Positions 1,958 to 47,968 of a DNA stretch of 48,339 bases are shown here, one piece after another (within the stretch, counting starts at the first letter, position 1; each line of letters opens with the position of its first letter). Source of the stretch: a virus (taxonomy: Duplodnaviria; Caudoviricetes). The notes under the pieces are model-generated. The model ran no database searches. It saw nothing but the letters and a program-made list of their open reading frames with translations, and was not told the origin of the DNA. The position numbers and the translations under genes are program-made. The stretch is from IMG/VR virus record IMGVR_UViG_3300034008_000044, positions 1 through 48,339 of that record; one strand, written 5' to 3'.

Positions 1958-1982
1958 GGAAAGTAAACAAAGGATCTCACCC

Positions 1983-2253: not shown

Positions 2254-2472
2254 ATGGCATATAAGAAAACACGTCGCAAATCAAAGAGTAAGCCCCGCTA
2301 CTCCATGAACGAATCGGACCTGCTGGCATTCGGTCAGTGGGTTCTGTTCGTGGCGTTCGTATGGCTGACCATAGCGGCGATCATCACCCTGGATGACAGG
2401 CTCATGCGGTTCAGTATCGGCCTGGGTATCATCCTGGCATATGGCGTTAAGAAGAAATGGTTTACACTGTGA
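2254..2472 (+). CDS. Small two-TM membrane protein
   Basis: Basic N-terminus followed by two hydrophobic segments. Confidence 0.7.
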   Translation: MAYKKTRRKSKSKPRYSMNESDLLAFGQWVLFVAFVWLTIAAIITLDDRLMRFSIGLGIILAYGVKKKWFTL

Positions 2473-2476
2473 GGGA

Positions 2477-2526
2477 AGCCCCCTCGGAGTTGTTGGCGTG
2501 AGATCCCTGCTCCGGCGGGGCCTTTT
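2477..2526 (+). terminator. Long hairpin/terminator whose loop carries the complement of the start-associated motif
   Basis: GCCCC-c-TCGGAG..CTCCGG-c-GGGGC then CTTTT. The loop contains GTGAGATCCCTG. Confidence 0.6.
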
Positions 2527-2564
2527 ATGCTTGACCGGAGAGGTGACCATTATATAATGATACT

Positions 2565-2668
2565 TGTGGCGATGAGCCACATGAGGGCCTTACAAACGCT
2601 TGAAACCGATGCGAGGGCTTTCAAGCGAGCAGGTGGAACACTGGACCGTCCGAGGGGGCGGTCTTTTT
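2565..2668 (+). ncRNA. Putative small RNA
   Basis: Promoter TTGACC-N16-TATAAT (2531-2558). Hairpins GTGGC/GCCAC and CGCTTGAAA/TTTCAAGCG. Terminator GACCGTCC-gagg-GGGCGGTC-TTTTT. No convincing ORF. Confidence 0.6.
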
Positions 2669-2696
2669 AATTGGCTCTGACCTCTGTCAGACTTAC

Positions 2697-3130: not shown

Positions 3131-3161
3131 TCATCAAACCAGTAAACAGGGATCTCACATC

Positions 3162-3521
3162 ATGGCATACATCACAGCCGACCGCACCAAGGAAATCAAA
3201 CGGGAACTGCAGCAGGCATTCCCAGGGCTGAGGTTTTCAGTCCGCAACCGCCACTATACCGAGGTGGCGGTCACCATCACCCAGGGCGACGTCGATTTCA
3301 GCGACATCATCGAGGGCGAGGGTCACAAATATATCCAGCTCAATCACTTCTACCTGGACCGATACGGCCGCCACTCGGAGCTGCTGACCGATATCTATGG
3401 CATCATCAACAAAGGGAACTATGATCGCTCGGACAGCATGACCGACTACTTCGATGTCGGGTTCTACATCCACATGCAGATCGGTGAATGGGATAAGCCA
3501 TACATCTATAAAGCCAGCTAG
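3162..3521 (+). CDS. LPD29-like (large polyvalent protein domain) protein
   Basis: IKRELQQAFPGLRFSVR..NYDRSDSMTDYFDVGFY pattern; start-associated motif upstream. Confidence 0.7.
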   Translation: MAYITADRTKEIKRELQQAFPGLRFSVRNRHYTEVAVTITQGDVDFSDIIEGEGHKYIQLNHFYLDRYGRHSELLTDIYGIINKGNYDRSDSMTDYFDVGFYIHMQIGEWDKPYIYKAS

Positions 3522-3583
3522 TCACTGACCTGGGCAGGTCGTAAAACTGCCCAGCCAACAAACCATAAACAGGGGATCTCACA

Positions 3584-3679
3584 ATGTCCAAAATAGCCGA
3601 ACCAATAACTCATGCCTTTCCACGGGTCGACGGCCCGCTCACCATGGGCATGCTAATCAAGATTGCGAGGGGCGAATGA
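3584..3679 (+). CDS. 31-aa hypothetical protein
   Basis: Follows AGGGGATCTCACA; ATGA-coupled to the next ORF. Confidence 0.55.
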   Translation: MSKIAEPITHAFPRVDGPLTMGMLIKIARGE

Positions 3680-3756: not shown

Positions 3757-4106
3757 ACCAGGAATACATCAGATATCGACAGTACACTCCGGACGGTTTC
3801 ATGTATTGGGGATATGGCATATACGCCACGGCATGGGAGCGCTTTGCTGGTCCGCTCAAAGACTATGACAGCGAGCCATATATCGGTCTGCAGGATCACC
3901 GCAATATCCGGATGTACGTCGGCGATATAGTCCAGGCTGATCTGCAGGGCGATGAGGACACCATGGTGACCGGACCCGTAAAGTTCGACATGGGCCAGTA
4001 TGTCATCATGACTGAGGATGGCGTCGGTCACTCGACCGCCCAGCTGCGGCGGGATGGCTGGACCCTGATGATACTCGGAAATATCCATGAGGGGTCTGCC
4101 GCATGA
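3753..4106 (+). CDS. YopX-family-like protein
   Basis: YIGLQDHRNIRMYVGDIV..ILGNIHE pattern. Confidence 0.7.
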   Translation: MNQEYIRYRQYTPDGFMYWGYGIYATAWERFAGPLKDYDSEPYIGLQDHRNIRMYVGDIVQADLQGDEDTMVTGPVKFDMGQYVIMTEDGVGHSTAQLRRDGWTLMILGNIHEGSAA

Positions 4107-4390
4107 AACTCTACAACGTCAATCTGACCGTGTCGGATGAGGATACCAACGAGCAGCTGGTCCAGCTGAAAGCGCCGCATCTGACCGGGCAGCAGGTCAT
4201 CCATCTGAATACCGAAGTCCTGGCTGGACTACTCCAGGAACCGGAGCCGGAGATCGTGACCGTATCGAAACCGCAGCCACCTGCCCGGCCAGTACGGAAA
4301 CGGAAGATCCGTAATCTACTCGGCCGCCGGGTGGATCCGCCTATCGAGCCGATGGACGGGCCAAGCAGTGATGATATCAAAGATATATAA
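4103..4390 (+). CDS. Hypothetical protein
   Basis: ATGA-coupled ORF. Confidence 0.65.
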   Translation: MKLYNVNLTVSDEDTNEQLVQLKAPHLTGQQVIHLNTEVLAGLLQEPEPEIVTVSKPQPPARPVRKRKIRNLLGRRVDPPIEPMDGPSSDDIKDI

Positions 4391-4401
4391 AGGAGAATAT
4401 C

Positions 4402-4917
4402 GTGACCGAAACTAATACCAAACCACTCACCATCCAGGTCGGTGACTTCCTGGCAGCGCCGAACACGGTCTGGCTGCGGGTCGCTGCAGTCCTGGATCAG
4501 GGCGTCGCCCTCTATGGGCTGGTGACCCTGGCGGACCATACTCATATGCACTGGTACACTGCCGCCGAGATCCGCAGCAAAAAGCTCCGGCGGGGATCGC
4601 CGCAGTTTGATCTATTCACCTCGCTGCAGATCGGTGACATTGTCCAGACGGGCGATGCTGATGGTCCATATGTGAAAGTCCTGGCACGGGTCGGCGATGC
4701 TGTCCTGCTGTCTGAGGAACCATCCCAGGCTGCGGACGTGGTCCTGGACTTTGGCCGGATGATGAACGAAAAGCTGGGCCGGGATGTCATGAGTGATGAG
4801 CAGGCTGAAAAGCTCCAGGCCGCCCGCAGCACGAACCAGGCTCACCAGCGGGCTGGCGACTGGTATGACGTCCATACGATGGCGCTGCGCAACTGGAACG
4901 TCGTGAGGGAAAGCTGA
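4402..4917 (+). CDS. Hypothetical protein (two SH3/KOW-like repeats)
   Basis: AAGGAG RBS; IQVGDFL.. and LQIGDIV.. repeats. Confidence 0.65.
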   Translation: MTETNTKPLTIQVGDFLAAPNTVWLRVAAVLDQGVALYGLVTLADHTHMHWYTAAEIRSKKLRRGSPQFDLFTSLQIGDIVQTGDADGPYVKVLARVGDAVLLSEEPSQAADVVLDFGRMMNEKLGRDVMSDEQAEKLQAARSTNQAHQRAGDWYDVHTMALRNWNVVRES

Positions 4918-5030
4918 TGGATGGCTGGCTCTATGATGACCGGGTGATGATAGCTCTGACTGTCATCATCCTGGCAGTCTTTGCCGCTGTCACTGCTTGG
5001 GCGCTCCGCCAGGGGGCTGACGATGAGTAG
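4917..5030 (+). CDS. 37-aa single-TM protein
   Basis: TGATG coupling; MDGWLYDDRVMIALTVIILAVFAAVTAWALR. Confidence 0.6.
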   Translation: MDGWLYDDRVMIALTVIILAVFAAVTAWALRQGADDE

Positions 5031-5265
5031 AAAAGAACCACCGAATGATCCTATCGGCGACATCTATCGGATCCTGGACCAGGCTGGGCTGTCCGGCGGC
5101 ACTCTGCTGAACGGCAAGCAACCCATTCTGACTATCGTCAACGGGATCCGGACCAAGATCGCCAAGCTGCTCAATGAGTACGTCATGAGCCGTGAAACTG
5201 ACATATATGAAGCTGGCTATCGCCAGGGAAAGGAAGACCAAAAAAATGGCAAGACTAGGATATAG
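5023..5265 (+). CDS. Hypothetical protein
   Basis: ORF in operon; YEAGYRQGKED tail. Confidence 0.65.
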   Translation: MSRKEPPNDPIGDIYRILDQAGLSGGTLLNGKQPILTIVNGIRTKIAKLLNEYVMSRETDIYEAGYRQGKEDQKNGKTRI

Positions 5266-5437
5266 GAGTGTCAGCCTGCCGGATGAGGATCATGCTGACC
5301 TGGTCGGCATCGGCGAACGCAAAGCCAAAGAAGCCGAGCAGGTCACGGGTGTCTATAAAGAGATATCGCCGCCTGAGGTCATCCGCCTGCTCATCAAAGA
5401 ACACAAGGCCCGCCAGGGTGCCGGGGCCGCATCATGA
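5246..5437 (+). CDS. Putative ribbon-helix-helix DNA-binding protein
   Basis: YRSVSLPDED strand then helices ending SPPEVIRLLIKE. Confidence 0.5.
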   Translation: MARLGYRSVSLPDEDHADLVGIGERKAKEAEQVTGVYKEISPPEVIRLLIKEHKARQGAGAAS

Positions 5438-5661
5438 ACCCGGAAGAACTGAAAACGCTGCGGGAAGTCGCCGCCAGGGATACCACCGTCATGGGCTTTT
5501 TACGCCTATGGGAACAGGTCGGCGGTCCGGTCGAGGTCATGCTGGTCCAGCTCATCAAGAGCCTATCCAGGGAAAAGCTGTCATACATCGAGCTGGCGGA
5601 TAAAATGGTCAGCATGCGGGCGGGCGAGGTGCCAGTCCTGAAAGGCGGGCGGAATGACTGA
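5434..5661 (+). CDS. Hypothetical protein
   Basis: ATGA-coupled ORF. Confidence 0.65.
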   Translation: MNPEELKTLREVAARDTTVMGFLRLWEQVGGPVEVMLVQLIKSLSREKLSYIELADKMVSMRAGEVPVLKGGRND

Positions 5662-6244
5662 TGCGTATCCACTACAATGGCCGCCAGCCTGGAAACGAAC
5701 TGACTATCCGGCTCGGCATCCGGCCATGCTCAATCACTTCCTCAAAGCACGGGATGGTCTGCTGCGGGAACTCGAACTGCTGGGCGCTGACGACATCGTC
5801 ATGTCCACCAATATACCGATTCGCAAGGATGGTCTGCCGTATGCAAATCAGCGTCAGCCTGATGATCCTGGGGTGGCGATATACTTCACCCTGGACGGTC
5901 AGCCGCAGTGCATACCGTGTGACAAGTGGGATACGGTCGCCCAAAACCTCAGGGCCGTCGAGCTGACCATCGGAGCGCTGCGGGGCCTGGAGCGCTGGGG
6001 CGCCAAGGAAATGGTGAACGCCGCATTCCGAGGTTTCAAGGCCCTGCCGGAAAGCGTCATCGTGACGCCATACACCACCCGCCCGTGGTATGAGGTGCTG
6101 CAGGTCCAGCCGGACGCCAGCCATGAGGTGGTCCGGGCAGCCTATCGAAACCTGGCCGCCAAATACCATCCAGACAACCAGGACACTGGTGACAATATCA
6201 AATTCATCGAACTGCAAAATGCATACAAGGAGTTCCAATCGTGA
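5654..6244 (+). CDS. Phage J-domain (DnaJ-like) protein
   Basis: N-terminal AYPLQWP..DPGVAIYF..IPCDKW; C-terminal J-domain WYEVL..AYRNLAAKYHPD. Confidence 0.9.
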   Translation: MTDAYPLQWPPAWKRTDYPARHPAMLNHFLKARDGLLRELELLGADDIVMSTNIPIRKDGLPYANQRQPDDPGVAIYFTLDGQPQCIPCDKWDTVAQNLRAVELTIGALRGLERWGAKEMVNAAFRGFKALPESVIVTPYTTRPWYEVLQVQPDASHEVVRAAYRNLAAKYHPDNQDTGDNIKFIELQNAYKEFQS

Positions 6245-6597
6245 GCTATGATCTCGGACTATACAAGACCAAGGACGGCGATGAGCCGCTGACGGTCGAC
6301 CTGCATCGTGAGGGTGGCACTTACGCCATGAACGGCACGGATCAGGCTGAGCTGAATATCACCTATAACTACAGCCCGTTCTTCCGGGATACTATCGACC
6401 CGGAGCTGGGCATTCGCTGGCTCTATGGACGCCAGGCAAAGGACTGCATCGACCGCCTGAAGTTTGCCGTCACCAAGCTCGGTACTGAGCGGTCAGAGGA
6501 CTACTGGAGTAAAACGGCCGGGAATGCCGGGCATGCGCTGAGCATCCTGCTGTCCTGGGCCGAGCAGCATCCGGAGGGTTACTTCCATGGCGACTAA
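6241..6597 (+). CDS. Conserved phage hypothetical protein
   Basis: MSYD..LNITYNYS..GNAGHAL pattern. Confidence 0.75.
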   Translation: MSYDLGLYKTKDGDEPLTVDLHREGGTYAMNGTDQAELNITYNYSPFFRDTIDPELGIRWLYGRQAKDCIDRLKFAVTKLGTERSEDYWSKTAGNAGHALSILLSWAEQHPEGYFHGD

Positions 6598-6925
6598 TAC
6601 CGATGATCTATCACCTGCAGCAAAGGCGGCCGTGTTCGGTGTCGCCATGCCTTTCATCCTGGTCGGCGTCATCCTGGTATATCTGCCGCTGGGCCTGCTC
6701 CGAGCCTGGGCGGTCTGGCTGCTCTATACCTGGTTTGCTGAGCCGCTGGGCGCTCCGGATCTGAACGTCTGGCATGTATGGGGGCTGCTGCTGCTCTATG
6801 CCCTGCTGACGCTCAACACTTTCAAGAAACGTGATACTGAGGGGTTCTGGAAAGGGATCGCAGGCCAGGTCATCGGATGCCTGGCGATGGTCCTGGTCGG
6901 ATACCTCATCAAGGGGTGGATATGA
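6587..6925 (+). CDS. Multi-TM membrane protein
   Basis: 3-4 hydrophobic segments. Confidence 0.75.
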   Translation: MATNTDDLSPAAKAAVFGVAMPFILVGVILVYLPLGLLRAWAVWLLYTWFAEPLGAPDLNVWHVWGLLLLYALLTLNTFKKRDTEGFWKGIAGQVIGCLAMVLVGYLIKGWI

Positions 6926-7176
6926 GCCAGGAACGCATCAGGTCGTGGTGTCCGGCCTGCAAAAGCAAAGACACCGTATTCGTCGCATCCGGCGGATACC
7001 TCACCTGCAGCTGGGTCGAGTGTCCGGAGCCTGACTTCATGAAAGCCTGGCAGACATTTGTCGACAGCATGATCGGTGACGATGAGCCAGAAAAGGCGCC
7101 GAGCCGGATCTGGAACAGCGGGAAGAACGCACTGCGGCATCAGCAGCGTGAGATCGCCAGGGAGATCCGACCATGA
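6922..7176 (+). CDS. Zn-ribbon hypothetical protein
   Basis: CPAC..LTCSWVECPEP. Confidence 0.7.
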   Translation: MSQERIRSWCPACKSKDTVFVASGGYLTCSWVECPEPDFMKAWQTFVDSMIGDDEPEKAPSRIWNSGKNALRHQQREIAREIRP

Positions 7177-7412
7177 GTAAGGACACCACCATCGTGGTCG
7201 GCTGCAGCCACCAACAGATCAAGTACTATCTGCAGCAGATGAACATACCGCTCAACCAGGCCAGGCTAGTCACTGGTGTGGATCAGGTTTATGGATACCG
7301 GGATACGCCGCTGATCTATGTCGGCGAGTATTGGCGGATCACTGATATCGGCAAAATCATGGAGTATGCTGCGATGCATAATCTGTACACGCCGAGCGAG
7401 GTGGCAGCATGA
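7173..7412 (+). CDS. Hypothetical protein
   Basis: ATGA-coupled ORF. Confidence 0.65.
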   Translation: MSKDTTIVVGCSHQQIKYYLQQMNIPLNQARLVTGVDQVYGYRDTPLIYVGEYWRITDIGKIMEYAAMHNLYTPSEVAA

Positions 7413-7600
7413 GCGAGCCATCACTCAATGACCAGGTCAATATCGAGCTGGATACCCGCAAGATCCGCCAGGCTGTCGACGCCGGGAAGATATCCCTGGA
7501 TGAGATAGCCAGCGCCCCGGTGGTCATGGTCTGCGAATGCGGCCTGGAGCAGTCTATCAAGAACGACAGCTGCGAGCGCTGCGGCCGGAGCCTGGTATGA
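7409..7600 (+). CDS. Small Zn-ribbon protein
   Basis: CECG..CERCG. Confidence 0.65.
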   Translation: MSEPSLNDQVNIELDTRKIRQAVDAGKISLDEIASAPVVMVCECGLEQSIKNDSCERCGRSLV

Positions 7601-7920
7601 GTGCCGCCAGGACTGCCGGGATATTCGCCGGGATCGTGACCGCCACCGCTTTCATGATCTTCCTGGCCGCCGCCGTGTACTGGCAGGTCAGACGCCCGCT
7701 GCCGGAGCCAGGCTATTCCGAGCCATGTACGGTCCAGGCATGCATCGAGATCCACCAGGCTGATGGCGCCCGCTACAGTCTGAACGACTTCCGGATGCTC
7801 GGACCTGACTGCATCGCTTTCATATCCATGCCGGACGGGAAAAATCGGAAGTACTGCGGGAAGTATGACCTCAAATGGATCGGACCAGACACCTCAGCAC
7901 GAAAGGAACAGACTATATGA
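7597..7920 (+). CDS. Membrane-anchored Cys-containing protein
   Basis: N-terminal TM; four Cys in the soluble part. Confidence 0.65.
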   Translation: MSAARTAGIFAGIVTATAFMIFLAAAVYWQVRRPLPEPGYSEPCTVQACIEIHQADGARYSLNDFRMLGPDCIAFISMPDGKNRKYCGKYDLKWIGPDTSARKEQTI

Positions 7921-8378
7921 CACTAGATATCACCCAGCTCATCAGGGAAAGCAACCTCATCGAGGGCTATGATGACCCAGCGTTCGACGCCCAGGGGATG
8001 ACAGCCTGGAAGTACCTGGCTAAAGTGGACCGCCTGGATCATGGTCACGTCATGAAAGTCCAGAAGATCCTGACACTCAAACAGACGGATCTGCAACCGG
8101 ACTGGCGTGGATACTATCGCAAGATCGACGTATGGGTTGGCGGTCGCAAGGGCGCTCATCCGGATGCGGTGCCGGCACTGATGGCAGACTGGATCTATCT
8201 GATCCCGGAGCGTGAGCCAGTGCCGCATCATATCGAGTTCGAGAAGATCCACCCGTTCGTGGATGGCAACGGCCGGACCGGGCGGATGCTGATGTGGTGG
8301 ATGCAGGCTCAGAGGGGCGAACCATACAGCCAGCTGACCGCTGCGGATCGACAATCATACTATGCCTGGTTCAGATGA
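7917..8378 (+). CDS. Fic-domain protein (putative AMP transferase)
   Basis: Canonical motif HPFVDGNGRTGR. Confidence 0.92.
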   Translation: MTLDITQLIRESNLIEGYDDPAFDAQGMTAWKYLAKVDRLDHGHVMKVQKILTLKQTDLQPDWRGYYRKIDVWVGGRKGAHPDAVPALMADWIYLIPEREPVPHHIEFEKIHPFVDGNGRTGRMLMWWMQAQRGEPYSQLTAADRQSYYAWFR

Positions 8379-8449
8379 GATATATACTTTCTTGTACTTT
8401 TGTGACATAAGTCCTTGACTTTTCGAGCCTAATGGGTTACAATAGTGGG

Positions 8450-8578
8450 TGTAAGGTACAGAGTGAGCTTCGGCCCTCAGCCTTACTACAAGCGGAAGAA
8501 TAGCCAGCTACGGCAGCGTACTCCACTCCAATGAGCAATATCAGCCCCTCGGTACTACAGCCGGGGGGTTTTCCTTTT
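8450..8578 (+). ncRNA. Putative small RNA or attenuator leader
   Basis: Promoter TTGACT-N17-TACAAT (8415-8443). 5' hairpin GTAAGG..C(UUCG)G..CCTTAC. Terminator CCCCTCGG/CCGGGGGG-TTTTCCTTTT. Confidence 0.6.
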
Positions 8579-8588
8579 ATAGGATATA

Positions 8589-8765
8589 ATGGCGCTTATG
8601 GATACCGCCCTCCGCATCGCCATCTGCCTGCTGATCTTTGCGGCGGGTTTCACGCTAGGGCAGGGCCATGGACTGCTCGACTTCAATGGTGACGGCCAGG
8701 TCAGCCGCCAGGACCTAAAGGATGCGACGGATCGAGTGCTGCCATCCATGGAGCGTACTGATTGA
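8589..8765 (+). CDS. 58-aa membrane microprotein with an EF-hand-like loop
   Basis: AGGA RBS; TM segment then DFNGDGQVSRQD. Confidence 0.7.
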   Translation: MALMDTALRIAICLLIFAAGFTLGQGHGLLDFNGDGQVSRQDLKDATDRVLPSMERTD

Positions 8766-8790
8766 CATATCACGTCAGACGTGCTACATT
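8762..8790 (+). promoter_or_regulatory. Sigma70-type promoter with a palindromic operator in the spacer
   Basis: TTGACA-N17-TACATT; the spacer holds CACGTC-A-GACGTG. Confidence 0.7.
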
Positions 8791-8827
8791 GAAAGGGTCA
8801 AATCAAACATAAACAAAGGGATCTCAC

Positions 8828-9283
8828 ATGTCCACAAAAGAACTATCAATACCAACCATATCAGACCCAAGCATCGAGCCAGGGATGGCCGAGCTGACCA
8901 TGTACCCGGAATGGAACCACGGCCAGCCTTTCGTCATCCGAGGGAACGAAGAGTTCCTGACTGATGAAGCCCGTCGGCTCCAGGCTGAGGATGATGCCAA
9001 TGCTCGCCGTCAGCGCAGCCAGGTCGCTCGCCAGGCTGTCGCCGCTACCGTCGCCCCGGTCGAAAAACTGGCCCAGGTAGTCACTCCGCTGGCTGAGGGT
9101 GTCGCCACTGAGATCAAGGTCACGGCTTTCGACCTGCTCCATGGCACTCATCTGCGCAGGGAACTGCATCGTCAGCGCCGGGTCCGCCGCATCACCTCAT
9201 TCGCTGCAGGTATCGGCATCCTGGACGTCGAGCCATGCGCTAAGCATCGCAAGGCTATGGACCGGGCCGAGGGGCTGATGTAG
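8828..9283 (+). CDS. Hypothetical protein (monocistronic cassette)
   Basis: Own promoter, GGGATCTCAC-ATG and a downstream terminator. Confidence 0.75.
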   Translation: MSTKELSIPTISDPSIEPGMAELTMYPEWNHGQPFVIRGNEEFLTDEARRLQAEDDANARRQRSQVARQAVAATVAPVEKLAQVVTPLAEGVATEIKVTAFDLLHGTHLRRELHRQRRVRRITSFAAGIGILDVEPCAKHRKAMDRAEGLM

Positions 9284-9320
9284 TCCTGGATCCCAGCGTC
9301 ATGACTGACCGCTCATCATC

Positions 9321-9350
9321 AAAGGCCCAGCTCCGGGCCTTTTTTGTTTT
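9321..9350 (+). terminator. Rho-independent terminator
   Basis: AAAGGCCC-agctcc-GGGCCTTT-TTT. Confidence 0.8.
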
Positions 9351-9418
9351 CCACAAATCCACAGGGATGTCCACAGCTCGCCGTGGTCTTGTCATCCCGA
9401 TAGTGCTATACTTTCAAC

Positions 9419-9586
9419 TAAGCGGTTCTGGCAAAACTAGACACTTTGCGGCATCGCTTGACAATACATCAATAACGTCGAGAGGGGTTGTCGCAAGCCC
9501 ATCTGTTTGTTATGCTTAGGATAGTCTAGTTTTGCCGCTACCCATCCGATAGCATGAAGACCCCTCCGAGAGAAAGGGGTCTTTTT
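9419..9586 (+). ncRNA. Structured leader/sRNA upstream of the replication initiator
   Basis: Extended -10 TGcTATACT. 13-bp stem GGCAAAACTAGAC/GTCTAGTTTTGCC. Terminator AAGACCCCT/AGGGGTCTT-TTT. Confidence 0.6.
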
Positions 9587-9664
9587 ATGTCCGACAAATA
9601 CATCAAACCGCACTCAGTCCTATGGTGGACATGGCACTGGCTCCGCCGAGGGTTTGGCAAGTGA
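9587..9664 (+). CDS. 25-aa Trp-rich leader peptide coupled to rep
   Basis: MSDKYIKPHSVLWWTWHWLRRGFGK; its TGA overlaps the GTG of the next gene. Confidence 0.45.
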   Translation: MSDKYIKPHSVLWWTWHWLRRGFGK

Positions 9665-10560
9665 GCAAACAGCGGATGCTGACCACCGGGTTCTGGTCTG
9701 ATCCCTGGGTGGTGGATGAGCTGAACCCGCTCGACAGGTACCTATTCATATACCTACTGACGAACGAACACACCACCATCGGCGGCGTCTATGAGCTATC
9801 GATGCGGACCATGGCTAATGAAACCGGGATCGAAAAAGAGGAACTTTCACGGATGCTCAAACGCATGGAAACCCGTGTCATATACATGGATGGCTGGGTC
9901 GTTTTCCGCAAAGCCATCATGCATCAGAATATCGGATCGCCTAAAATCAAGGCAGCTGTTGCGCAAACGCTCAAATCATTGCCGAGGGCGCTGCTGGAAT
10001 ACGTCCAGGTGCCTGCTGACTTCGGTGAGCTGCTGCAGGCTGAGTATGGTATTGATACGGTATCCATATGGTATCCAGACGGTATGCATACGTTATCGCA
10101 TTCTAATACTAATCTTAATTCTAATTCTAATAGTAAAGGAGCTAAAGCTCCTGTTCTTGTCGACCAGGCGGCTCAGCCTAAAAGCAGGCCCCGCCCGGCC
10201 GTGAAAACATCACCAGCTCCGGCGCCTGCATCGACCAGCAAGACACTGACCTACAGGTCGCTGTTCACTGAGCTGGTCCAGGACCTCGGTTTTGATGTGA
10301 GCCGGATCCTGCTGACGAAAGAGCGGCAGTCAAAGCTCAAAGTCAGACTGTCGAGCTACAGCCCGGACCAGCTCCGGACTGCTGCCAAAAACCTGGGAGC
10401 TGACAGTCACATGCAGGGCGACAACAAAGAGGGCAAACGCTGGGGAACAATCGACTACCTGCTGCGGAATGACACCACCGTGGCGAAATACTTGGAAAAT
10501 GATGCAGCTCCGGCTGGCGTCGCAAACATAGGAGAAATTGATGAAAGCAAATATGTCTGA
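9661..10560 (+). CDS. Phage replication initiator (replisome organizer-like)
   Basis: RMLTTGFWSDPWV..LFIYLLTN..GVYEL wHTH N-terminus; C-terminal W-x-TIDYLLR; internal iterons. Confidence 0.8.
   Translation: MSKQRMLTTGFWSDPWVVDELNPLDRYLFIYLLTNEHTTIGGVYELSMRTMANETGIEKEELSRMLKRMETRVIYMDGWVVFRKAIMHQNIGSPKIKAAVAQTLKSLPRALLEYVQVPADFGELLQAEYGIDTVSIWYPDGMHTLSHSNTNLNSNSNSKGAKAPVLVDQAAQPKSRPRPAVKTSPAPAPASTSKTLTYRSLFTELVQDLGFDVSRILLTKERQSKLKVRLSSYSPDQLRTAAKNLGADSHMQGDNKEGKRWGTIDYLLRNDTTVAKYLENDAAPAGVANIGEIDESKYV
10043..10137. repeat. Putative replication origin: five 11-bp iterons and an AT-rich tract
   Basis: AGTATGGTATT/GATACGGTATC/CATATGGTATC/CAGACGGTATG/CATACGTTATC, then (TCTAAT)-like repeats. Confidence 0.7.
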
Positions 10561-18688: not shown

Positions 18689-19648
18689 ATGCAAGACGCA
18701 CGACAAGTCTACCGGGATCAAGTACTGACCGATGTGTTCCTCAGCTTTCCAGCTCAGAACCTCATCGGCAGCCTGGTCCTGCCAACATTAAACGTTCCCG
18801 ACCTCACTGGTCTGGCTTTCAAGCTCGACGAATCGCATCTGACGGTGCCTATCGACAGCCGCCGTGCTGACTTTGCCCGTGCAAATCGTGTTAGCTTTGA
18901 GCTGACTGACCAGGCATATGGCCCGCTGGCAGAACACTCACTGGAAGCCGGTATCACCGACAAAGTGATGCGGACATACCAGACGCCTATCGTTCCGGAA
19001 ACAAATGCCACCAACGTGGTATCCCGCAAGCTCGCTTTTGAGAAAGAGATCTATATCCGGAACCATGTCACCAATATCGCTAATTATCACACCAACAACC
19101 GCATTGTCCTGTCCGGCGCTGCCAAGCTGAGTGATGACGCATCTGATCCTGAAGCCATGGCTCAGGCTGCGCACGAGGCCATGCTGCTCGGATGTGGTCA
19201 CCGTGCCAATCAGGTCACTATGGGCTACCAGGTCCGCAAGCGGCTCCGCAACCACCCGAAAGTCCTGGCTACTTTCAACGCCGTGGCCCGTGTCACCAAT
19301 GAGGAAAAGGATGCAGCCATCCGTGAGATCCTTGATGTCGAGCGCATCATCGTATCTGAGGGCATCATATCCGACCAGGCTGATGGTCAGCTGTCCGGCG
19401 GCAAGTCGTTCATTTGGGGCGATGACCTGATCTTCCAGTACGTTGTCGACACTCCAGTCATGGAAGACCTGACCTATGGATATCTGCTCAACCTGAACCC
19501 ACGCCATGACACTGAGGGCGCTCCATTGGTCGGTGTTGACAAGTGGTACGAACAGGACAAAAAGTCGACCTTTGTCCGGGCCACCGAGTTCTATGGCACC
19601 TGGACCGTGGCAAACACTGCCGGGTTCCTATATAAAGATTGTTTGTAA
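18689..19648 (+). CDS. Major capsid protein
   Basis: Position and size (319 aa); LRNHPKV, IWGDD and TYGY motifs. Confidence 0.8.
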   Translation: MQDARQVYRDQVLTDVFLSFPAQNLIGSLVLPTLNVPDLTGLAFKLDESHLTVPIDSRRADFARANRVSFELTDQAYGPLAEHSLEAGITDKVMRTYQTPIVPETNATNVVSRKLAFEKEIYIRNHVTNIANYHTNNRIVLSGAAKLSDDASDPEAMAQAAHEAMLLGCGHRANQVTMGYQVRKRLRNHPKVLATFNAVARVTNEEKDAAIREILDVERIIVSEGIISDQADGQLSGGKSFIWGDDLIFQYVVDTPVMEDLTYGYLLNLNPRHDTEGAPLVGVDKWYEQDKKSTFVRATEFYGTWTVANTAGFLYKDCL

Positions 19649-21259: not shown

Positions 21260-24200
21260 ATGCCAGCGCCACTATTCCAGGCCGTATCCAACGCAGCAGG
21301 TCACTCGGCTACCACCGGGGCGCTGGCTGTTGCCTGGCCCGCTCATCTGATCCATGACGTGGCGCTCTTATTCATCGAAACAAACGGCGGCGCTGCCAGT
21401 CCTACCCTGTCAGTTCCAGCTGGTTTTGCGCTGCTCGGCACTATCCAGACCACTGGAACCGGTACGGCGGGAACGAAAATCGCCGTGTACTGGTGCCGGG
21501 CGACATCCAACGCCATGGCGACGCCTACCATCGCAGCCAGCACCGACCACCTGTTCGCTGTCATGGTCACATACCGGGGCGTCATCCGGACCGGAAACCC
21601 CTGGAACGCTACCGCCGGGGGCGTCAAGGCTACCGCATCCACCAGCGCCACTCTATCGGCCGTCACCACAACCGTCGCTGATAGCCTGATAGTGCTAGGC
21701 ATAGCGGGCGACCTGGATGCGGCTGGTGCCTGGGTGACCGGGATCACAAACGCCAACCTGACCGGGATCACTGAGCGGTTCGACCAGGGTACGGCGTCCG
21801 GCCTGGGTGGTAAGCTCGGCGTCTATACTGGAACGAAAGCCACCGCCGGATCCACGGGAACATCTGCTGCCACTGTCACCTCATCGATCAATGCGTTCAT
21901 CACTATCGCCCTGACGCCGGAGCCGACACGGGCATTGGCATCGACGGTCCTGGACAACTACAACGACAACACCATATCCAACCTATGGGATACCGTCACA
22001 TACTCCAACAACGCCGCCAGCACCACCGAGCTGAACTCCATGATGACGCTGACGCATCCAAACCTGACATACAACACGGTCCTGACGGCCAGCGAATACT
22101 CACTGCTCGCAAACAACTTTTATGTCGAGGTGGTGGATGCCGGGAACCAGACATATGTCAGTCACTCGGCTCAGATCCTGGTGTACCTGGATGCAAATAA
22201 TAAGATATGGCTCGAAGCCGCTGGCGGCAACCTGCAGGCATTCAGGAACGTCGCAGGCGTCCAGACCCAGGTCGGTACTGGCATCGCCTACAGCAACACC
22301 ACCATGCGCTGGTGGCGTATCCAGGAAAGCGGCGGCAACATCACGTTCTGGACCGCACCGGACAATGGAGCCGGGGCGCCTGGCACCTGGGTCCAGCGGT
22401 TCGTCGCCCTGGCACTGCCATTCCCTATCACATCGGTCCGTATCGGTATGGTGTCCGGAAACTGGCAAAGCGAAGTCGGCGGATCATATGCCACCTACAA
22501 CAACTTCAATGGCGGCGGCGAGCCTACCCTGGACACGTTCATGTGGATGGGCAGGCGATGGCAAAAGCGGCCCAGCTATAAGCCAGGCGATCCGATGTAT
22601 AACGGCCAGTGGAGCGTCGATAATATCATCGAACCGGACGTCAATGGATACATCAAGCTGCGGGTCAGCAACGCCGCAGGGAACAGTCCTATCGGCTCCG
22701 AGATGTACACCGTCGACCGGGGTTTCGGATATGGCGTATATGAATCAGTAGTCGAGGGCGGTGACCTCACCACCCTGCATAAGTCCGCAGTGTTCGGCGG
22801 GATGTACACCTATGACGAGCAAACGCTGCCGACCAACAACGAAATCGACATGATGGAAACCTCAGCCTGGGGAAATGCCCTGGATCCTATCGGTCTATTC
22901 CATACCTACTTCATCAACACTGCAGGCGCCAAGGTGTCAGTTGAGGACCGGGTGGATATCCCTGCCAACAGCCTGCTATATCACCGCATGATCTGGATGC
23001 CGACCAAAATCATATGGGAAAGCTATATCGGCACCGACTACACTGGCACCCTGATATTCCGGACTGAGCGGACCACCAACATACCAGTGCCAGCGACCGA
23101 GCGGGTCCATTTCAATTTCTGGATGTTCGGCGGCAACGGCGGCACTCCGGCCACCATGACCCAGCGGGATGTCACGGTCCGCAGCTGGGCATTCACACCC
23201 GTGCAAAAACTGCCATATCGCCAGGTCAAGGCGCTCAAATATGATCTGTCAGTCCAAACGGATCTATACTATTTCGACGGCCATACCGCCATCAATGATC
23301 CAGGCGCCAAGTGGGGAGCTGATGCCAGCGCCTTTGATAATTCCACCACCAGCGGGTCGTTTCTCCAGGAAGCCACAGCAGTCGGCAGCGCCACCACTGA
23401 CTACCTGGAGGGCAAGGGAACGACCGCACCCGCTACCAGCAGCAGGACCATCAGCCAGGTCCGGGTCCGGGCGTATGGATATCAAACCAACGGGTTCTTT
23501 AACCTGGAGGGCAAAATATACAAAGCAGGCGGCGCTGAGCTGCTGGGAACCATAGCTTTCAATACAGGACAACCACCGACTGGCAACCTCGGAGCCTGGA
23601 CCACACTATCCGCACCGACTGGCGGATGGACTGCTGCTGCCGTGAGGGATCTGGAAACCAGACTATACTATCCAAACGCATTTACGCCTGACCTCTATGC
23701 TCCAGGCGTCAACTATGTCGAGGTAGAAGTCACGTCATACTCAGGCACTCAGGCCACCCAGGTCCAGGCCACCAAGAGCCTGGCATACCGGATCCGTAAA
23801 AGCCAGACGGCACTCACGAAGTCAGCCCGCTACACCATCCGCAGGCCCGCCACTGCCATCACGAAGTCAGTCAAATACACGATCCGAAAGGCTGCAACAG
23901 CCCTCACCAAATCACTGCGCTATGCAGCCAAAGTCACCAGGGGGCCAGCCCAGGCGTTCAGTCTGCTGACATATACGGGCAGCAACGGGAAACTGATACC
24001 TGTCGATCTGTCCGCCACCAATGCCGTCAGTTTTGTCTTTGATATGGACTATACGCCAGTCGGCAGCGCTTTCAGCGGCATGGCCCTGGAGCTGAGTACA
24101 AACAGCAACATCAGCAACGGTGGATTCTTCTTTGCTCCGACCAGTGAGTTCGATGGCAGTCAGCTGGAGCTGCTGGAGCATGGCACCAGTGGATATAACG

Positions 24201-27200
24201 TATGGCAGGCACCACGCCGCAGCGCCGGGCTGCATCGGTATGTCATCGTGGTCGACCGCAGTCAGACGGGCGCCCCGTTCCGTCTATATGTCGATGGCCT
24301 GGCGGTGACCCTGACCCAGCATGCCAGCTATACCGCAGACAATAATAACAACTTCACCAATGAGGGCCTATATGTCGGCGGCCGTGCTACAACCAGCAAC
24401 TTTATCATAGCGGGCATCAGCGATCCGCTCATATATGACTATGCGCTGACAGGCACCCAGGCCGCCGCATTCAGCGCCGCCACCGCACCGCAAAAAGCAC
24501 TCCAGTATGCCATCAGCCAGGTCGTCGTCACGGCCACCATCATCGGAAAGTCTGCCGCCTATAGCCTGAGGAAACCGCTGTCACTCACCAAGTCGATGCG
24601 ATACGCTATCCGCCGCCCGGCGAGCGCCATCACCAGGTCCATCCAGTACGCTATCAAGCGGCCCGCCACCGCACTCACCAGGTCAGTATCGTATCGGATC
24701 AAGCGCCCGGCCACTGCCGTCACAAAGCAACTAAAGTACTCAGTCCGAACGGTGTCTGCGGCTATATCAAAGGGTCTGACATACCGGGCTGAGCGGATCT
24801 ATTCCGTCGCAAAGTCGGTCCAGTATGTCACCAGGAAACAGATATCTGCATCAAAGACCCTGCAGTACACCGTCCGGCGGCCTGTTGTAGCACTCACAAA
24901 GGGCATCCAGTACACCGTCAGACGCCCGGCGGCGGCACTGAGTAAATCTATTAACTACCAGGTGAAACGGCCAGCAGCGGCAGTCACCAGGTCGGTCCAG
25001 TATGCGGTCGAGAAAGCCAGCAGCCTGAGCAAGTCATTTAAGTATTCCGTCCGGCGACCAGCCACCGCCATCAGCAAGTCGACCAGCTACCAGGTCCGCA
25101 GATCCGCCGCAGCCGTGACCAAGTCACTGCAGTATGCGACTGAGCGGGCTGCCACTATAGCCAAGCCTGTCCGCTATGCGACCCGCCAGACCCAGGCTGT
25201 CATCAGCAAGGGCGTCCAGTATCGTATCCGCCTGGCATCCGGTATCACTACCAAGGCCCTGGGATATGAGCTGGCGTTCATTACGGTGGTCGCCCTGGGC
25301 CTGAAATACTCCATATTCCGAGTACAAAATATAACCAAATCACTCCAATACATCACTCGGCGGACCTCTGTCATCGGTCGGCCGCTGCAGTACGTCACCA
25401 GGCGACAGCCGACTATCAGCAAGGGGCTGCAGTACGCTACTGAGCGCCCGGTCGCCATCAGCAAGCAGGTCAGATATGCAGTCGAGCGGACTGGTATCAG
25501 CATCAGCCGCAGCCTGGCATATGCCACCAGGCCCGCAGTCACCCAGGCCAAACAGCTGCGATATGTCATCCGACGGCCCGCATCCATAGCCAGGAGCCTG
25601 CGGTACACCATCGAGCGCCCGGCATCCATCGCCAGGTCTATGACATACCGGATCCGGACCACGCCCGGCGCCATATCCCGCTCCATGCGATACGCTACCA
25701 GGATAGCAGGCGTCAGCATCACCCGCTCCATGGCCTACAGTATCGACCTGCCGACTGTCATCCTGACCAAGGCGCTGGCCTACTATATCCGCAAGGCCCC
25801 GGCCCTATCCAAGCCCCTGCGCTATGCCCTGCGACCCGTCACCACTGTAACCAAACCACTGTCCTACACTATCAGGGCGGGCAGGGGAGTGACCCGCAGC
25901 CTGGCATATGCAGTCAGACGTCCGGCCGCTGCGGTCACCAAAGAGATCACATACCGCATCCGGCGCCCTGCATCAGCTGTCACCAAGACCATCGACTATG
26001 ACGTAAAAGCACCCAAAGCGGTCACTAAATCACTGCGCTACCAGGTACGAACGACTGCTGCAGCCATCACAAAACCGATCCGATACGCCACTGAGCGGGT
26101 CACCACCAGCGCCAAGGGCCTGCAATATGTCATCAAAAAACCGATAGCACTGAGCAAACAATTTAACTATCGCATCAGGGCGGCCGCCAATGTGACCAAG
26201 CCGCTGCAGTACGCTGTCGAGAAGAGCCTGGCGATCACCCGTCCGCTGCGCTATGCCGTGGCACCTGCATACGGGATCAGCAAGGGCGTCGCCTATATAG
26301 TCCGGCCATCCTACCGCATCGGCAAGACGCTGCACTATGGACTGCGGACTGGCAGCGGATCCGGCGGTGGATCTCAGACCCTCATGCTGACCGTGGACGG
26401 CGACGGTTTCCATACTACTGGCTGGCGGAGTGAGGGCGGCGACTGGACCCGCCTGACATCAGACGATGGTGACACGTCCAGACTATACTCGCCAAGCAGC
26501 GGCGACCTGGCGACGTTCACCGTGACCAATCCCGTGCTACCTGCGGGCGCTACCATCAGCAGCCTGACGGTCTACTATAAAGTGAAAAAGCTCGACCCCG
26601 TGGATGGACTGAGCCGCCTGCTGCTCCGGGTCAGCGGCACCACATACGACACCGCAAACCACAACCCGACGACTGCGGGCGTCTATCAGCTATTCAGCAA
26701 CACCTGGAACCAGAACCCAGCCAACGGCCAGGCATGGACCGCCGCCGCCTTGAACGATATCGAAATCGGTATGAAAAAGGAAAACAGTGCCGGGCAAGCC
26801 GTGACCTACATGTACGCCGTGGTGACATATACAGCGCCCGTCAATAAGGTCACCACTATGATGAGCAAGGCCCTGCAGTATGTAGTCCAGGGTACGTCCA
26901 CCCAGCTCACCACCAAGCCGATGGCATACCGTGTCCGCCGCTCCATACCTATCAGCAAGGCGCTGCGCTATGCGACCGAACGGCCGACAGCGATCACCCG
27001 CAGCCTACAGTACACGGTCCGCAAAGCGATCACCACCACCCGACCGCTGCGCTACCAGGTCGAAAAGGTCCAGGCAATATCCAAGGCGCTGCGGTATCAG
27101 GTCCGGACCACGGGCGCCGCTATCACCAAGCCTGTCAGCTACTCAGTCCGCAAGGGCATCGCCGTGACCCGCAGCATCAAGTACACCATCCGCCGGACAC

Positions 27201-28261
27201 CTGGAGCGATCAGCCGCTCACTCACATACCGCATCGAGCGGACCGGAGCCATGACCAAATCTGTCAGCTATAGCATCCGAAAATCTGCCGCCATCACGAA
27301 AGTCCTGGACTATGAGATCCGGGCAGCCAGGAACGTCAGCCGGGCGCTATCCTACCGGGTCGAGCTGTCTGCCGCTATATCCAGGAGCCTGGCATATCAG
27401 ATCCGAAAAGCTGGAGCCATCACGAAGTCCATGCGCTATGATGTCCGGGCAAGAAACACGGTCAGCAAGTCGCTGCGGTACACGGTGAAAGCTCCGGCCG
27501 CCATATCCAGGGCGCTGACATACCGCATCGAAAAAGCTGCCGCCGTCACCCGATCCATGGCGTACTCAGTCAAGGCTCCGGCCGCTATCACCAGGGCGCT
27601 GCGCTATACTATCGAGCAGCCTGAGAATATCAGCCGGGCGCTGAGCTATCGGATCCGGACCATCCGCCATACATCCAGGCCGCTGGCATATGATATCCGG
27701 ACCGTGACTGCCATCACCAAGGGCCTGAACTACCGCATCGAGCGGGCTGCGACAATCGGCCGCTCACTCAAATACTCGACCACCACGGGCGCCATGCTCA
27801 TGACCAAACCACTGCGCTACTCAGTCGAGCGGGTCCAGACTATCGCCAAGGCGCTGCGGTACGTCACGCTGCGGCAGCCTGTCATCGGCAAAGCCCTGTC
27901 ATATCAAAATGTACGACATATCAATAAGTCGAAAGGGCTGGCATATAACATCCGCCAGGCGACAACCATATCCAAGCAGATGGCCTACCAGGTGGCGATC
28001 CAGACCGTGGTCAGCCGGGCGCTGCAGTATCGGATACTCAGCCGCCGCATCCTCAGCGATGCCCTGATATATGCCGTCCTGATACCGCCGACAGTCAGCG
28101 GCAAGCTGAGCATGGGCCAGCGACCTGACCGCCTGCCGCTCGGATCCAATGCTCCGTTCGTCACTATCCGCCAGGACCGGAACAGCCTGCTGATATCAAA
28201 CGGCAAGCAGACATCAGTCATGGATATAAGTCAACAAAGCAATAGCATAATGCTACAATAA
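21260..28261 (+). CDS. 2333-aa putative fibre/adhesin: beta domains, GH16-like and LamG-like domains, ~75 basic 14-15-aa repeats
   Basis: EIDMME (ExDxxE) motif; LamG-like RLYVDG..LYVGG..IYDYALT; repeats [ST][KR]xLxYx[IV][RK]. Confidence 0.75.
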   Translation: MPAPLFQAVSNAAGHSATTGALAVAWPAHLIHDVALLFIETNGGAASPTLSVPAGFALLGTIQTTGTGTAGTKIAVYWCRATSNAMATPTIAASTDHLFAVMVTYRGVIRTGNPWNATAGGVKATASTSATLSAVTTTVADSLIVLGIAGDLDAAGAWVTGITNANLTGITERFDQGTASGLGGKLGVYTGTKATAGSTGTSAATVTSSINAFITIALTPEPTRALASTVLDNYNDNTISNLWDTVTYSNNAASTTELNSMMTLTHPNLTYNTVLTASEYSLLANNFYVEVVDAGNQTYVSHSAQILVYLDANNKIWLEAAGGNLQAFRNVAGVQTQVGTGIAYSNTTMRWWRIQESGGNITFWTAPDNGAGAPGTWVQRFVALALPFPITSVRIGMVSGNWQSEVGGSYATYNNFNGGGEPTLDTFMWMGRRWQKRPSYKPGDPMYNGQWSVDNIIEPDVNGYIKLRVSNAAGNSPIGSEMYTVDRGFGYGVYESVVEGGDLTTLHKSAVFGGMYTYDEQTLPTNNEIDMMETSAWGNALDPIGLFHTYFINTAGAKVSVEDRVDIPANSLLYHRMIWMPTKIIWESYIGTDYTGTLIFRTERTTNIPVPATERVHFNFWMFGGNGGTPATMTQRDVTVRSWAFTPVQKLPYRQVKALKYDLSVQTDLYYFDGHTAINDPGAKWGADASAFDNSTTSGSFLQEATAVGSATTDYLEGKGTTAPATSSRTISQVRVRAYGYQTNGFFNLEGKIYKAGGAELLGTIAFNTGQPPTGNLGAWTTLSAPTGGWTAAAVRDLETRLYYPNAFTPDLYAPGVNYVEVEVTSYSGTQATQVQATKSLAYRIRKSQTALTKSARYTIRRPATAITKSVKYTIRKAATALTKSLRYAAKVTRGPAQAFSLLTYTGSNGKLIPVDLSATNAVSFVFDMDYTPVGSAFSGMALELSTNSNISNGGFFFAPTSEFDGSQLELLEHGTSGYNVWQAPRRSAGLHRYVIVVDRSQTGAPFRLYVDGLAVTLTQHASYTADNNNNFTNEGLYVGGRATTSNFIIAGISDPLIYDYALTGTQAAAFSAATAPQKALQYAISQVVVTATIIGKSAAYSLRKPLSLTKSMRYAIRRPASAITRSIQYAIKRPATALTRSVSYRIKRPATAVTKQLKYSVRTVSAAISKGLTYRAERIYSVAKSVQYVTRKQISASKTLQYTVRRPVVALTKGIQYTVRRPAAALSKSINYQVKRPAAAVTRSVQYAVEKASSLSKSFKYSVRRPATAISKSTSYQVRRSAAAVTKSLQYATERAATIAKPVRYATRQTQAVISKGVQYRIRLASGITTKALGYELAFITVVALGLKYSIFRVQNITKSLQYITRRTSVIGRPLQYVTRRQPTISKGLQYATERPVAISKQVRYAVERTGISISRSLAYATRPAVTQAKQLRYVIRRPASIARSLRYTIERPASIARSMTYRIRTTPGAISRSMRYATRIAGVSITRSMAYSIDLPTVILTKALAYYIRKAPALSKPLRYALRPVTTVTKPLSYTIRAGRGVTRSLAYAVRRPAAAVTKEITYRIRRPASAVTKTIDYDVKAPKAVTKSLRYQVRTTAAAITKPIRYATERVTTSAKGLQYVIKKPIALSKQFNYRIRAAANVTKPLQYAVEKSLAITRPLRYAVAPAYGISKGVAYIVRPSYRIGKTLHYGLRTGSGSGGGSQTLMLTVDGDGFHTTGWRSEGGDWTRLTSDDGDTSRLYSPSSGDLATFTVTNPVLPAGATISSLTVYYKVKKLDPVDGLSRLLLRVSGTTYDTANHNPTTAGVYQLFSNTWNQNPANGQAWTAAALNDIEIGMKKENSAGQAVTYMYAVVTYTAPVNKVTTMMSKALQYVVQGTSTQLTTKPMAYRVRRSIPISKALRYATERPTAITRSLQYTVRKAITTTRPLRYQVEKVQAISKALRYQVRTTGAAITKPVSYSVRKGIAVTRSIKYTIRRTPGAISRSLTYRIERTGAMTKSVSYSIRKSAAITKVLDYEIRAARNVSRALSYRVELSAAISRSLAYQIRKAGAITKSMRYDVRARNTVSKSLRYTVKAPAAISRALTYRIEKAAAVTRSMAYSVKAPAAITRALRYTIEQPENISRALSYRIRTIRHTSRPLAYDIRTVTAITKGLNYRIERAATIGRSLKYSTTTGAMLMTKPLRYSVERVQTIAKALRYVTLRQPVIGKALSYQNVRHINKSKGLAYNIRQATTISKQMAYQVAIQTVVSRALQYRILSRRILSDALIYAVLIPPTVSGKLSMGQRPDRLPLGSNAPFVTIRQDRNSLLISNGKQTSVMDISQQSNSIMLQ

Positions 28262-41556: not shown

Positions 41557-41593
41557 AGGTGAGATCCTTGTTTGTTTTTTATATACGCTGACA

Positions 41594-43080: not shown

Positions 43081-43331
43081 TGTGAGATCCTTTCGTATAG
43101 TTGCTTAAAGTCATCCGGTCCGCATGGATATATATCGTCATCGGTCCGTTTGATTATGTAGTCACCGACATGAGCCTGGACAGTTCCGGCTGGTGTATCG
43201 ACCTCCAGCACGGTCATGTATGGAGTCTTATGCACCACTCCGTCGGACCACTCTATGATTTCATCAGCGTTGTCGGTGAACTGGATGGCCTGGACATCGC
43301 TGACCTTGCGGCGATAGGTATGGGCAGGCAT
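43077..43331 (-). CDS. Conserved phage hypothetical protein (YRKK..GDYII..YPC family)
   Basis: YRRK..VQAIQF..GDYII..YPC..F..YE. Confidence 0.75.
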   Translation of the reverse strand: MPAHTYRRKVSDVQAIQFTDNADEIIEWSDGVVHKTPYMTVLEVDTPAGTVQAHVGDYIIKRTDDDIYPCGPDDFKQLYERISQ

Positions 43332-47761: not shown

Positions 47762-47968
47762 ATGTGAGATCCCCTATTTAATGTTGACTGGCGGCCACCA
47801 GCCAGGACTGGATGTCTTCCAAAATATCGTACTAACGTCCATGTATAGTCAGTGCGTAAAAGCCGTTCCTGCTATGGATCCCGGTCGATGACCTGGTGCA
47901 TTGTTCACTGCGACGGGCGCCTGGACGGGTCCAAACCACTCACCGCATTCTGCTAATGCACTAACCAT

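Follow-up and report, generated by a model that had tools for sequence, protein, structure and literature searches.

A hairpin loop complementary to a tag at several start codons: a probable antisense RNA in a tailed phage and its relatives

The locus and its genome

The window, by which we mean the whole stretch of 48,339 nucleotides analysed here, is an apparently complete and circularly permuted tailed-phage genome with an end repeat of 122 nt. Its head, tail and lysis genes occupy about 12.9-39.4 kb, and across the contig ends two divergent non-structural arms meet. The subject of this work is an intergenic hairpin in one of these arms, downstream of a gene with a ParB-like N-terminal domain (349-1920), together with a short sequence, here called the tag, that precedes several start codons. 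The features are collected in Table 1, where L numbers denote relative loci.

Table 1. Coordinates of the hairpin, the start-linked tags and neighbouring elements in the window, and tags of related phages
Feature	Position	Strand	Remarks
Predicted antisense RNA, ~50 nt	2478-2526	+	folding: stem 2478-2490/2509-2521, loop 2491-2508 (18 nt), U-run 2523-2526
Seed	2498-2509	+	GUGAGAUCCCUG (= GTGAGATCCCTG); complement of start tag
Candidate -10 box TACACT	2463-2468	+	9 nt before stem; -35 match weak; predicted 5' end ~2474-2477
Neighbouring separate unit	2531-2672	+	strong promoter TTGACC-16-TATAAT; three-hairpin non-coding RNA candidate of ~105 nt, z -3.7
Tag	1972-1980	+	before gene 1983-2177 (64 aa); 9-nt pairing with loop
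Tag	3147-3158	+	before gene 3162-3521 (119 aa, Pfam LPD29); 12-nt pairing
Tag	3573-3582	+	before 31-aa ORF 3584-3679; 10-nt pairing
Tag	8817-8827	+	before gene 8828-9283 (151 aa); 11-nt pairing
Tag	47764-47773	-	before 35-aa Cys-rich ORF 47761-47654; 10-nt pairing; site of covariation test
Tag	44896-44909	-	before 323-aa Hint-domain gene 44888-43917; longest match, 14 nt, into stem
Tag	43082-43090	-	before potassium-channel-like gene 43080-42598; 9-nt pairing
Tag	41559-41567	-	before 22-aa ORF 41556-41488, overlapping a 100-aa gene; 9-nt pairing
Own tag of L177			AAAGGACCAA
Own tag of L178			GGGGTCAAA, extending to 16/18 nt
Own tag of L179			AAGGAAAGGTCAAA
Own tag of L180			AAAGGGTCAAC
Own tag of L232			AGGGTCAA
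Own tag of L254			GGAGTATCACC
Own tag of L266			AAGGGGATC

In the window and nine related virus records (six of the ten at least 90% complete), we found neither a tyrosine integrase nor a serine-type recombinase, and nothing above cut-off for HTH_3, the CI-type HTH. The PHROGs and Pfam scans, together with the integrase and HTH_3 searches, detected no antirepressor, repressor or integrase family in the window, as a first, sequence-only reading of this DNA had stated for CI repressor and integrase. No tRNA or tmRNA was found in the window, and two short ORFs compared with PHROGs gave no match. A 2333-aa protein is encoded between the head and connector genes (21260-28261, +); it contains numerous degenerate repeats, each about 14-15 aa long. 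A conserved hairpin with a GCGAG(A/G) loop and flanking A/T-rich tracts occurs at 114-138 and at equivalent sites upstream of ParB in many relatives; loops of this type are common among the hairpins of this phage group.

When the ParB-like N-terminal domain was compared with GTDB contigs, Saccharibacteria bins accounted for two of the top four hits and for one weaker hit, and the remaining contigs belonged to an unclassified bacterium and to a Flavobacteriales bin containing the same phage as L232. The host is probably a member of Saccharibacteria, although bins can be wrong and the assignment is tentative. A ParB search of 401 genomes of this probable host class returned the seed genome only. 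Among 61 sampled genomes of the class, which are incomplete, Hfq and Rho were each found in none and RNase III in 59, and the 16S tail was the canonical GGATCACCTCCTTTCT in 13 of 15.

Start-linked tags in the window

The tag GGATCTCAC stands 0-7 nt before eight start codons (ATG) of non-structural genes, whose leaders are A-rich. Eleven exact copies of this 9-mer are present, about 0.4 being expected from base composition: the eight start-linked copies, one reversed copy in the loop of the intergenic hairpin, and two inside late genes. When up to two mismatches are allowed, there are 21 matches, compared with 6.1 +/- 2.4 in shuffled sequences, and none of 100 shuffles reached 21. All start-linked copies are in sense orientation, and the structural module has none. 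The two late copies, which had been noted beforehand at 19323 and 30950, lie at 19323-19334 (capsid) and 30950-30958 (a tail-region gene), so that these late mRNAs carry the antisense 9-mer in coding sequence; at two against 0.4 expected, they are probably due to chance.

Several of the tagged ORFs begin a larger unit. Genes 1983-2177 and 8828-9283 are the first after the promoter-like sites TTGCCA-17-TACTCT and TTGACA-17-TACATT, respectively, and the 35-aa Cys-rich ORF heads the leftward Gam-like/RecT/RecE operon. Five of the eight overlap the next ORF, and two of these, the 31-aa ORF and the potassium-channel-like gene, head chains of four overlapping ORFs, the former reaching 4390. In L232, an ORF similar to the 22-aa ORF bears the tag of that phage. 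As to gene content, the gene at 44888-43917 (-) encodes a small protein of membrane type whose N terminus carries a Hint (PT-HINT) domain, and a LemA gene follows it; the chain at 43080-41817 (-) contains, besides the potassium-channel-like gene, a 2H phosphoesterase with weak similarity, below cut-off, to the anti-CBASS protein Acb1.

The core of the tag pairs with the 16S tail if one bulge is allowed. Its 3' part, in contrast, finds no partner in the sampled tail and varies from phage to phage; because that tail is canonical in most of the genomes sampled, the varying parts are not explained by rRNA. By its sequence, the tag is thus a composite of a purine half, the putative Shine-Dalgarno (SD) element, and a 3' half that would be a private specificity element.

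The reversed copy is GTGAGATCCCTG (2498-2509, +), and its complement CAGGGATCTCAC is found exactly at 3147-3158 (+) and 44896-44907 (-). Pairing with the other copies had been put at 9-10 nt, which is correct for most of them; the six remaining start-linked copies give 9-11 nt, the one at 8816-8827 pairing over 11, one more than claimed. On the minus strand, no ATG follows the reversed copy within 12 nt downstream, again as first reported.

Folding of the hairpin

Taken alone, the hairpin is a modest folder (z -1.5, matched by 16 of 200 shuffles), and its minus strand, which would carry the sense tag in the loop, folds as well (z -2.5). The description of the loop as largely unpaired depends on where the RNA begins. 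It holds for 5' ends at 2472-2479, for which the mean unpaired probability is about 0.7, but not for those at 2460-2467 (0.1-0.2), as in the tail of the upstream mRNA, where two other hairpins, one of them a plain terminator, bury the seed; 5' ends at 2468-2471 are predicted to give mixed folds. No Rfam family matched the window at gathering score, and loose E-values gave only weak, unrelated matches.

Promoter, strand and type of transcript

The sequence-only reading had proposed a small RNA derived from the 3' end of an mRNA. From the candidate -10 box in Table 1, however, transcription would start in the range where the loop is open. The same hexamer occurs in L179, at 8 nt from the hairpin, and plain TAnnnT boxes stand at 9 nt in the window and L177. 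An extended -10 box (consensus TGnTAnnnT) is present within 24 nt upstream on the antisense strand of five of nine hairpins and on the opposite strand of none, against a background of 1-3% per upstream window; in L178 and L232 there is no -10 box within 24 nt of the hairpin. U-runs follow the hairpin on the antisense strand in several phages. Fold energy fails to pick the strand, the antisense strand being the more stable in six of nine.

Two relatives show other arrangements. In L180, cassette and promoter box together are turned round with respect to ParB, and the two targets are on both strands, which implies that an RNA of this kind would act in trans. In L254, a short promoter-terminator unit apparently contains three hairpins, of which this one comes first. 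Since promoter boxes lie just upstream of hairpins in relatives, the L180 cassette is inverted with its own box, and the window loop is open only from 2472 onward and closed in the 3'-UTR context, we set aside the 3'-end origin: to judge from these elements, the antisense RNA is probably made from its own promoter, whose position suggests a primary transcript.

The separate unit at 2531-2672 immediately follows, and RNA candidates of this type are often found beside the antisense hairpin in relatives. It has a single-stranded GAG(A/G)(A/G)(C/T)(C/T)TT core, also present in L177, L178, L232, L266 and L181, and no Rfam match. Elsewhere, at 8415-8582 (+), is a promoter-to-terminator unit of about 130 nt without a clear ORF, the terminator stem of which starts like the 5' arm of the antisense hairpin.

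Hairpins and tags in related phages

Relatives were gathered via RecT and by alignment of the ParB-like domain. We inspected 26 relative loci, picked mostly by ParB identity; after removal of two duplicates and four without downstream DNA, 20 were left. A hairpin with a pyrimidine-rich loop lies downstream of the ParB(-methylase) gene in eight of them (L177, L178, L179, L180, L232, L254, L264 and L266). Five of these were spotted by eye from their position (L178, L179, L232, L254, L264) and L177 by its position before the neighbouring RNA, while L180 and L266 were found by a complementarity screen, so that some selection is built into the set. Seven of the eight have start-linked tags complementary to their own loop, with at least five different tag sequences (Table 1), and L264 is a 1.3-kb fragment without a testable target.

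Most relatives have only one to three start-linked tags per whole record (two each in L177 and L232, three in L178, one in L179). L266 has five in the locus, one of them before a replication-initiator-like gene. L232 also carries a tag at the equivalent leftward position (8955-8970, -) that no ATG follows, with only a possible three-codon TTG mini-ORF.

In the other 12 of the 20 relatives no such hairpin is seen; five of these are fragments of about 6 kb or less, and in L173, L174, L175 and L260 both flanks are present. L173, L174 and L175 are the three closest to the window by ParB. The hairpin must therefore be dispensable or mobile. Where present, the stems share 44% mean column identity and are not alignable, so common descent is not shown by them and no covariance model was built.

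L173 (11650-11705) and L175 (11620-11692) each contain an extended -10 box and a hairpin with the shared loop TGCCCACCC. No matching phage start was found within these loci, and this loop may target a host RNA. The C-rich hairpins of L173 and L175 were tried as variants of the antisense hairpin and rejected, as neither ranked high among the partners of the ribosome-binding site (RBS) in its own phage.

Other routes to relatives gave little. Searches with the upstream 72-aa protein or the capsid protein yielded none; among the 20 capsid matches listed in annotated phages, identity was at most 27.5%. DNA pattern scans for the window hairpin or tag gave chance matches only, and a further pattern scan returned the two known relatives and 72 unrelated loci. 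A second RecT scan found no further phage with the ParB-hairpin region, and early screens for hairpins de novo suffered either from noise or from overly strict settings.

Covariation of loop and tag

If the loop recognises the tag, the two should change together, and the comparison across relatives, which the first reading had named as a check, shows that they do. When each loop was compared with all A-rich starts of each phage, the resulting matrix was diagonal; the exceptions are L180 and L232, whose tags are of one type, and three isolated 9-nt cross-matches involving the window.

A stricter test was confined to a single site that is equivalent in seven phages, the RBS of the gene that opens the leftward operon. 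This gene is a small Cys-rich ORF of similar kind in five of them (the window, L177, L179, L180 and L266); in L254 it is likewise Cys-rich, and in L178 a different ORF takes its place. L232, which has no ATG there, and L264, which has no site, were left out. Own loop-tag pairs extended over 10, 12, 9, 14, 11, 13 and 13 nt, compared with 3-8 nt (mean 5.0) for foreign pairs, and the true assignment was the best of all 5040 permutations, both by length and by duplex energy. The seven phages are non-independent samples, and most of the ParB tree lacks resolution, strong support being limited to 5 of 23 inner branches; in that tree, hairpin phages with differing tags are scattered among hairpin-less ones.

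Two scans of the loci approached the question from the other side. In the first, the RBS was used to find its best partner among 4,000-10,500 windows per locus. With the antisense strands of other tag copies set aside, the loop came first in L177, L178, L179, L180, L254 and L266; in the window itself, the four top places shown were all such antisense strands, and the loop of L232 stood outside the first four. No such partner of the RBS turned up in four relatives that lack the hairpin. In the second scan, a fixed rule (a -10 box, a single hairpin and a 9-nt complement) was run on 50 loci, and its best match was the expected hairpin in the window, L177, L179, L180, L254 and L266. It missed L178 and L232, which have no -10 box, and gave unrelated top matches in L128/L178, L188, L262 and L350. 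In L179 (103/1000) and L232 (46/1000), the loop-shuffle test gave weak results. On this comparison of sequences, the feature is conserved in its logic and not in its sequence.

Proposed action and alternatives

Pairing energies corrected for accessibility place seven of the eight tagged starts at ranks 1-7 among 72 starts tested, and the eighth (43080), for which the program picked a longer and costlier duplex, at rank 15; this ranking is approximate because 15 of the 72 start coordinates miss the start codon, in two tagged cases by a single base. The predicted duplex covers the SD core and the spacer, and the target leaders are mostly open, with an opening cost of 2-4 kcal/mol for six of eight. 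From the tags, the loop, their covariation and the promoter-like boxes as well, we think it likely that the hairpin at 2478-2526 is a trans-acting antisense RNA of about 50 nt that pairs with the tags and blocks translation. The one-to-many regulator first suggested is thus supported by the loop-tag covariation, while its 3'-end origin and its role in immunity are not.

Transcribed from about 2474-2477, the RNA would pair through its loop with the single-stranded tag in an A-rich, open leader without the help of a chaperone, and this would exclude the 30S subunit from tagged starts. Since most tagged ORFs run into the one downstream (five of eight), the block could then be passed on to downstream ORFs by translational coupling. 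A structured RNA that needs no chaperone would suit a host without Hfq and Rho, and such a host would account for the placing of tags gene by gene instead of a reliance on polarity: without Rho, each translation unit would need its own tag. The heads of the two divergent early operons apparently form the core of the target set, which is expanded in the window and L266.

An immunity or timing role had been proposed by analogy with P1 c4 or P4 CI RNA. Because no integrase and no CI-type repressor was detected, a translational timer on early genes is likelier, and a lytic brake fits better: the RNA would accumulate during infection and then shut off the early proteins that are made first. Beside this delayed brake, exclusion of co-infecting phages with the same tag is a plausible, secondary by-product that could drive the divergence of tags.

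Covariation shows pairing and not its sign, and the RNA might instead activate translation, protect the mRNA or mark it for cleavage by RNase III, which nearly all sampled genomes of the probable host class encode; the loops also partly resemble the 16S tail. We consider such an outcome unlikely. The duplex covers the SD core itself, and leaders that are mostly open have little inhibitory structure for an activating RNA to relieve. Cleavage is opposed by the length of the duplexes, 9-14 bp being short for RNase III.

The direction of transcription bears on a second possibility, that the tag is the site of a phage RNA-binding protein and the hairpin is transcribed from the minus strand as a decoy carrying the sense tag, for which CsrB is a precedent. 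A protein site would likewise be copied exactly, and the minus strand does fold as well, with the tag in its loop. However, both the extended -10 boxes (five of nine against none) and the U-runs mark the antisense strand, and the PHROGs and Pfam scans gave no candidate RNA-binding regulator, though most small genes are unannotated. This makes the decoy quite improbable.

The tag could also be an operator or recombination site in double-stranded DNA, the reverse copy being an extra site that happens to lie in a terminator. The tag of L232 without an ATG would agree with this, as would the refolding of the window hairpin into a plain terminator in its mRNA context. We hold it to be a rather improbable account, given that a DNA site would not need the uniform sense orientation and RBS spacing of the start-linked copies, and that the reverse copy is found in the loop of a hairpin in every one of eight phages, even though their tags differ and their stems are unrelated.

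Finally, chance, in the form of a strong extended Shine-Dalgarno reused by the phage and a coincidental complement in a terminator loop, is very improbable: the one-bulge pairing of the tag core with the 16S tail and the two late coding copies speak for it, but the 9-mer falls in a given 20-nt loop with a probability of about 5e-5, the match recurs with different tags in seven relatives, the 72 unrelated pattern loci gave only scattered matches to their own starts, and the single-site permutation test already largely refutes it.

Comparison with known systems

In anatomy, the closest parallel is found in the start-associated sequences (SAS) of Cluster K mycobacteriophages. The available text of PMC3203893 describes 11-19 tags per genome, with a single copy in opposite orientation in four phages, and leaves the function open as a site for RNA or protein; in 2024, the role was still called ill-defined (PMC11373665, available text). 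Like the window tag, the SAS is an asymmetric, private tag a few bases before non-structural starts, conserved beyond the SD core, and in each case there is a single reverse copy unlinked to a start, although the window has the two further 9-mer copies inside late genes. The window tag differs from the 13-bp SAS consensus given in the available text of PMC3203893. Cluster K phages have another host, belong to another phage group and are temperate with a protein repressor, and loop-tag covariation is shown for the phage group of the window, not for Cluster K. In the text available of both papers (PMC3203893, PMC11373665), the reverse SAS is not described as RNA.

We examined the SAS in the right arm of Adephagia (30000-59646 of the record) and in part of Anaya (45000-60835). 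One reverse copy is found in each (at record positions 58682-58694 in Adephagia), compared with 15 forward copies in Adephagia and 8 in Anaya. Both are intergenic, between genes 92-93 and 96-97, respectively, and both lie in the loop of a strong hairpin with 10 of 13 nt unpaired (L538 28655-28715 and L539 14843-14903). As both phages are cultured, this makes the idea testable.

In c4 of P1/P7 (Rfam RF01695), an RNA loop pairs with a phage RBS and partly occludes it, and the loop sets the specificity; with its three stem-loops, c4 is released from a precursor by RNase P, and the icd-ant operon that it controls is its own (PMC5320573 and PMC8198154, available text). The window hairpin is similar in that its loop complements phage RBSs, with loop and target both phage-specific. 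Unlike c4, which has two pairing loops, a' and b', it is a single hairpin with one seed, and it has probably its own promoter, no RF01695 match, no icd-ant context, and, in these phages, one to eight putative targets on separate transcripts of both strands. Rho-dependent termination acts downstream of c4 or P4 CI, and would be unavailable if the host of the window lacks Rho.

Other phage antisense RNAs act on phage genes, namely P22 sar, lambda OOP and aQ, of which sar blocks initiation of ant translation; in the available text, each is described with a single target gene (PMC12197685). The window hairpin, in contrast, is encoded away from its putative targets and matches several. Small RNAs with C-rich loops, such as S. 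aureus RsaE and RNAIII, expose a seed against SD regions, and the antisense RNAs of plasmid incompatibility form specificity groups defined by loop sequence. Here, by contrast, a single phage genome encodes both the putative regulator and its targets, and no one but the phage uses the tag. A literature search, covering main texts largely outside the subscription journals, gave no description of an RNA of this kind.

Implications

A wider reading is possible, though we hold it only tentatively and with some doubt: a private RBS tag and one mirror hairpin RNA may form a general, repressor-free translational regulon of phages, which genes would join by gaining a tag and in which tag-loop pairs would diverge into incompatibility types that silence competitors of the same type. 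In these Saccharibacteria-type phages, such a regulon might act as the main switch of early genes, and it might also explain the SAS of Cluster K, open since 2011.

The results offer sequence-level evidence for an RNA-only regulon in phages without a recognisable repressor, in hosts that probably lack Hfq and Rho. They also provide a concrete candidate mechanism for the unexplained SAS of Cluster K, where the reverse copy is found in cultured, genetically tractable phages. In addition, natural orthogonal loop-tag pairs would be compact translational switches that need no chaperone.
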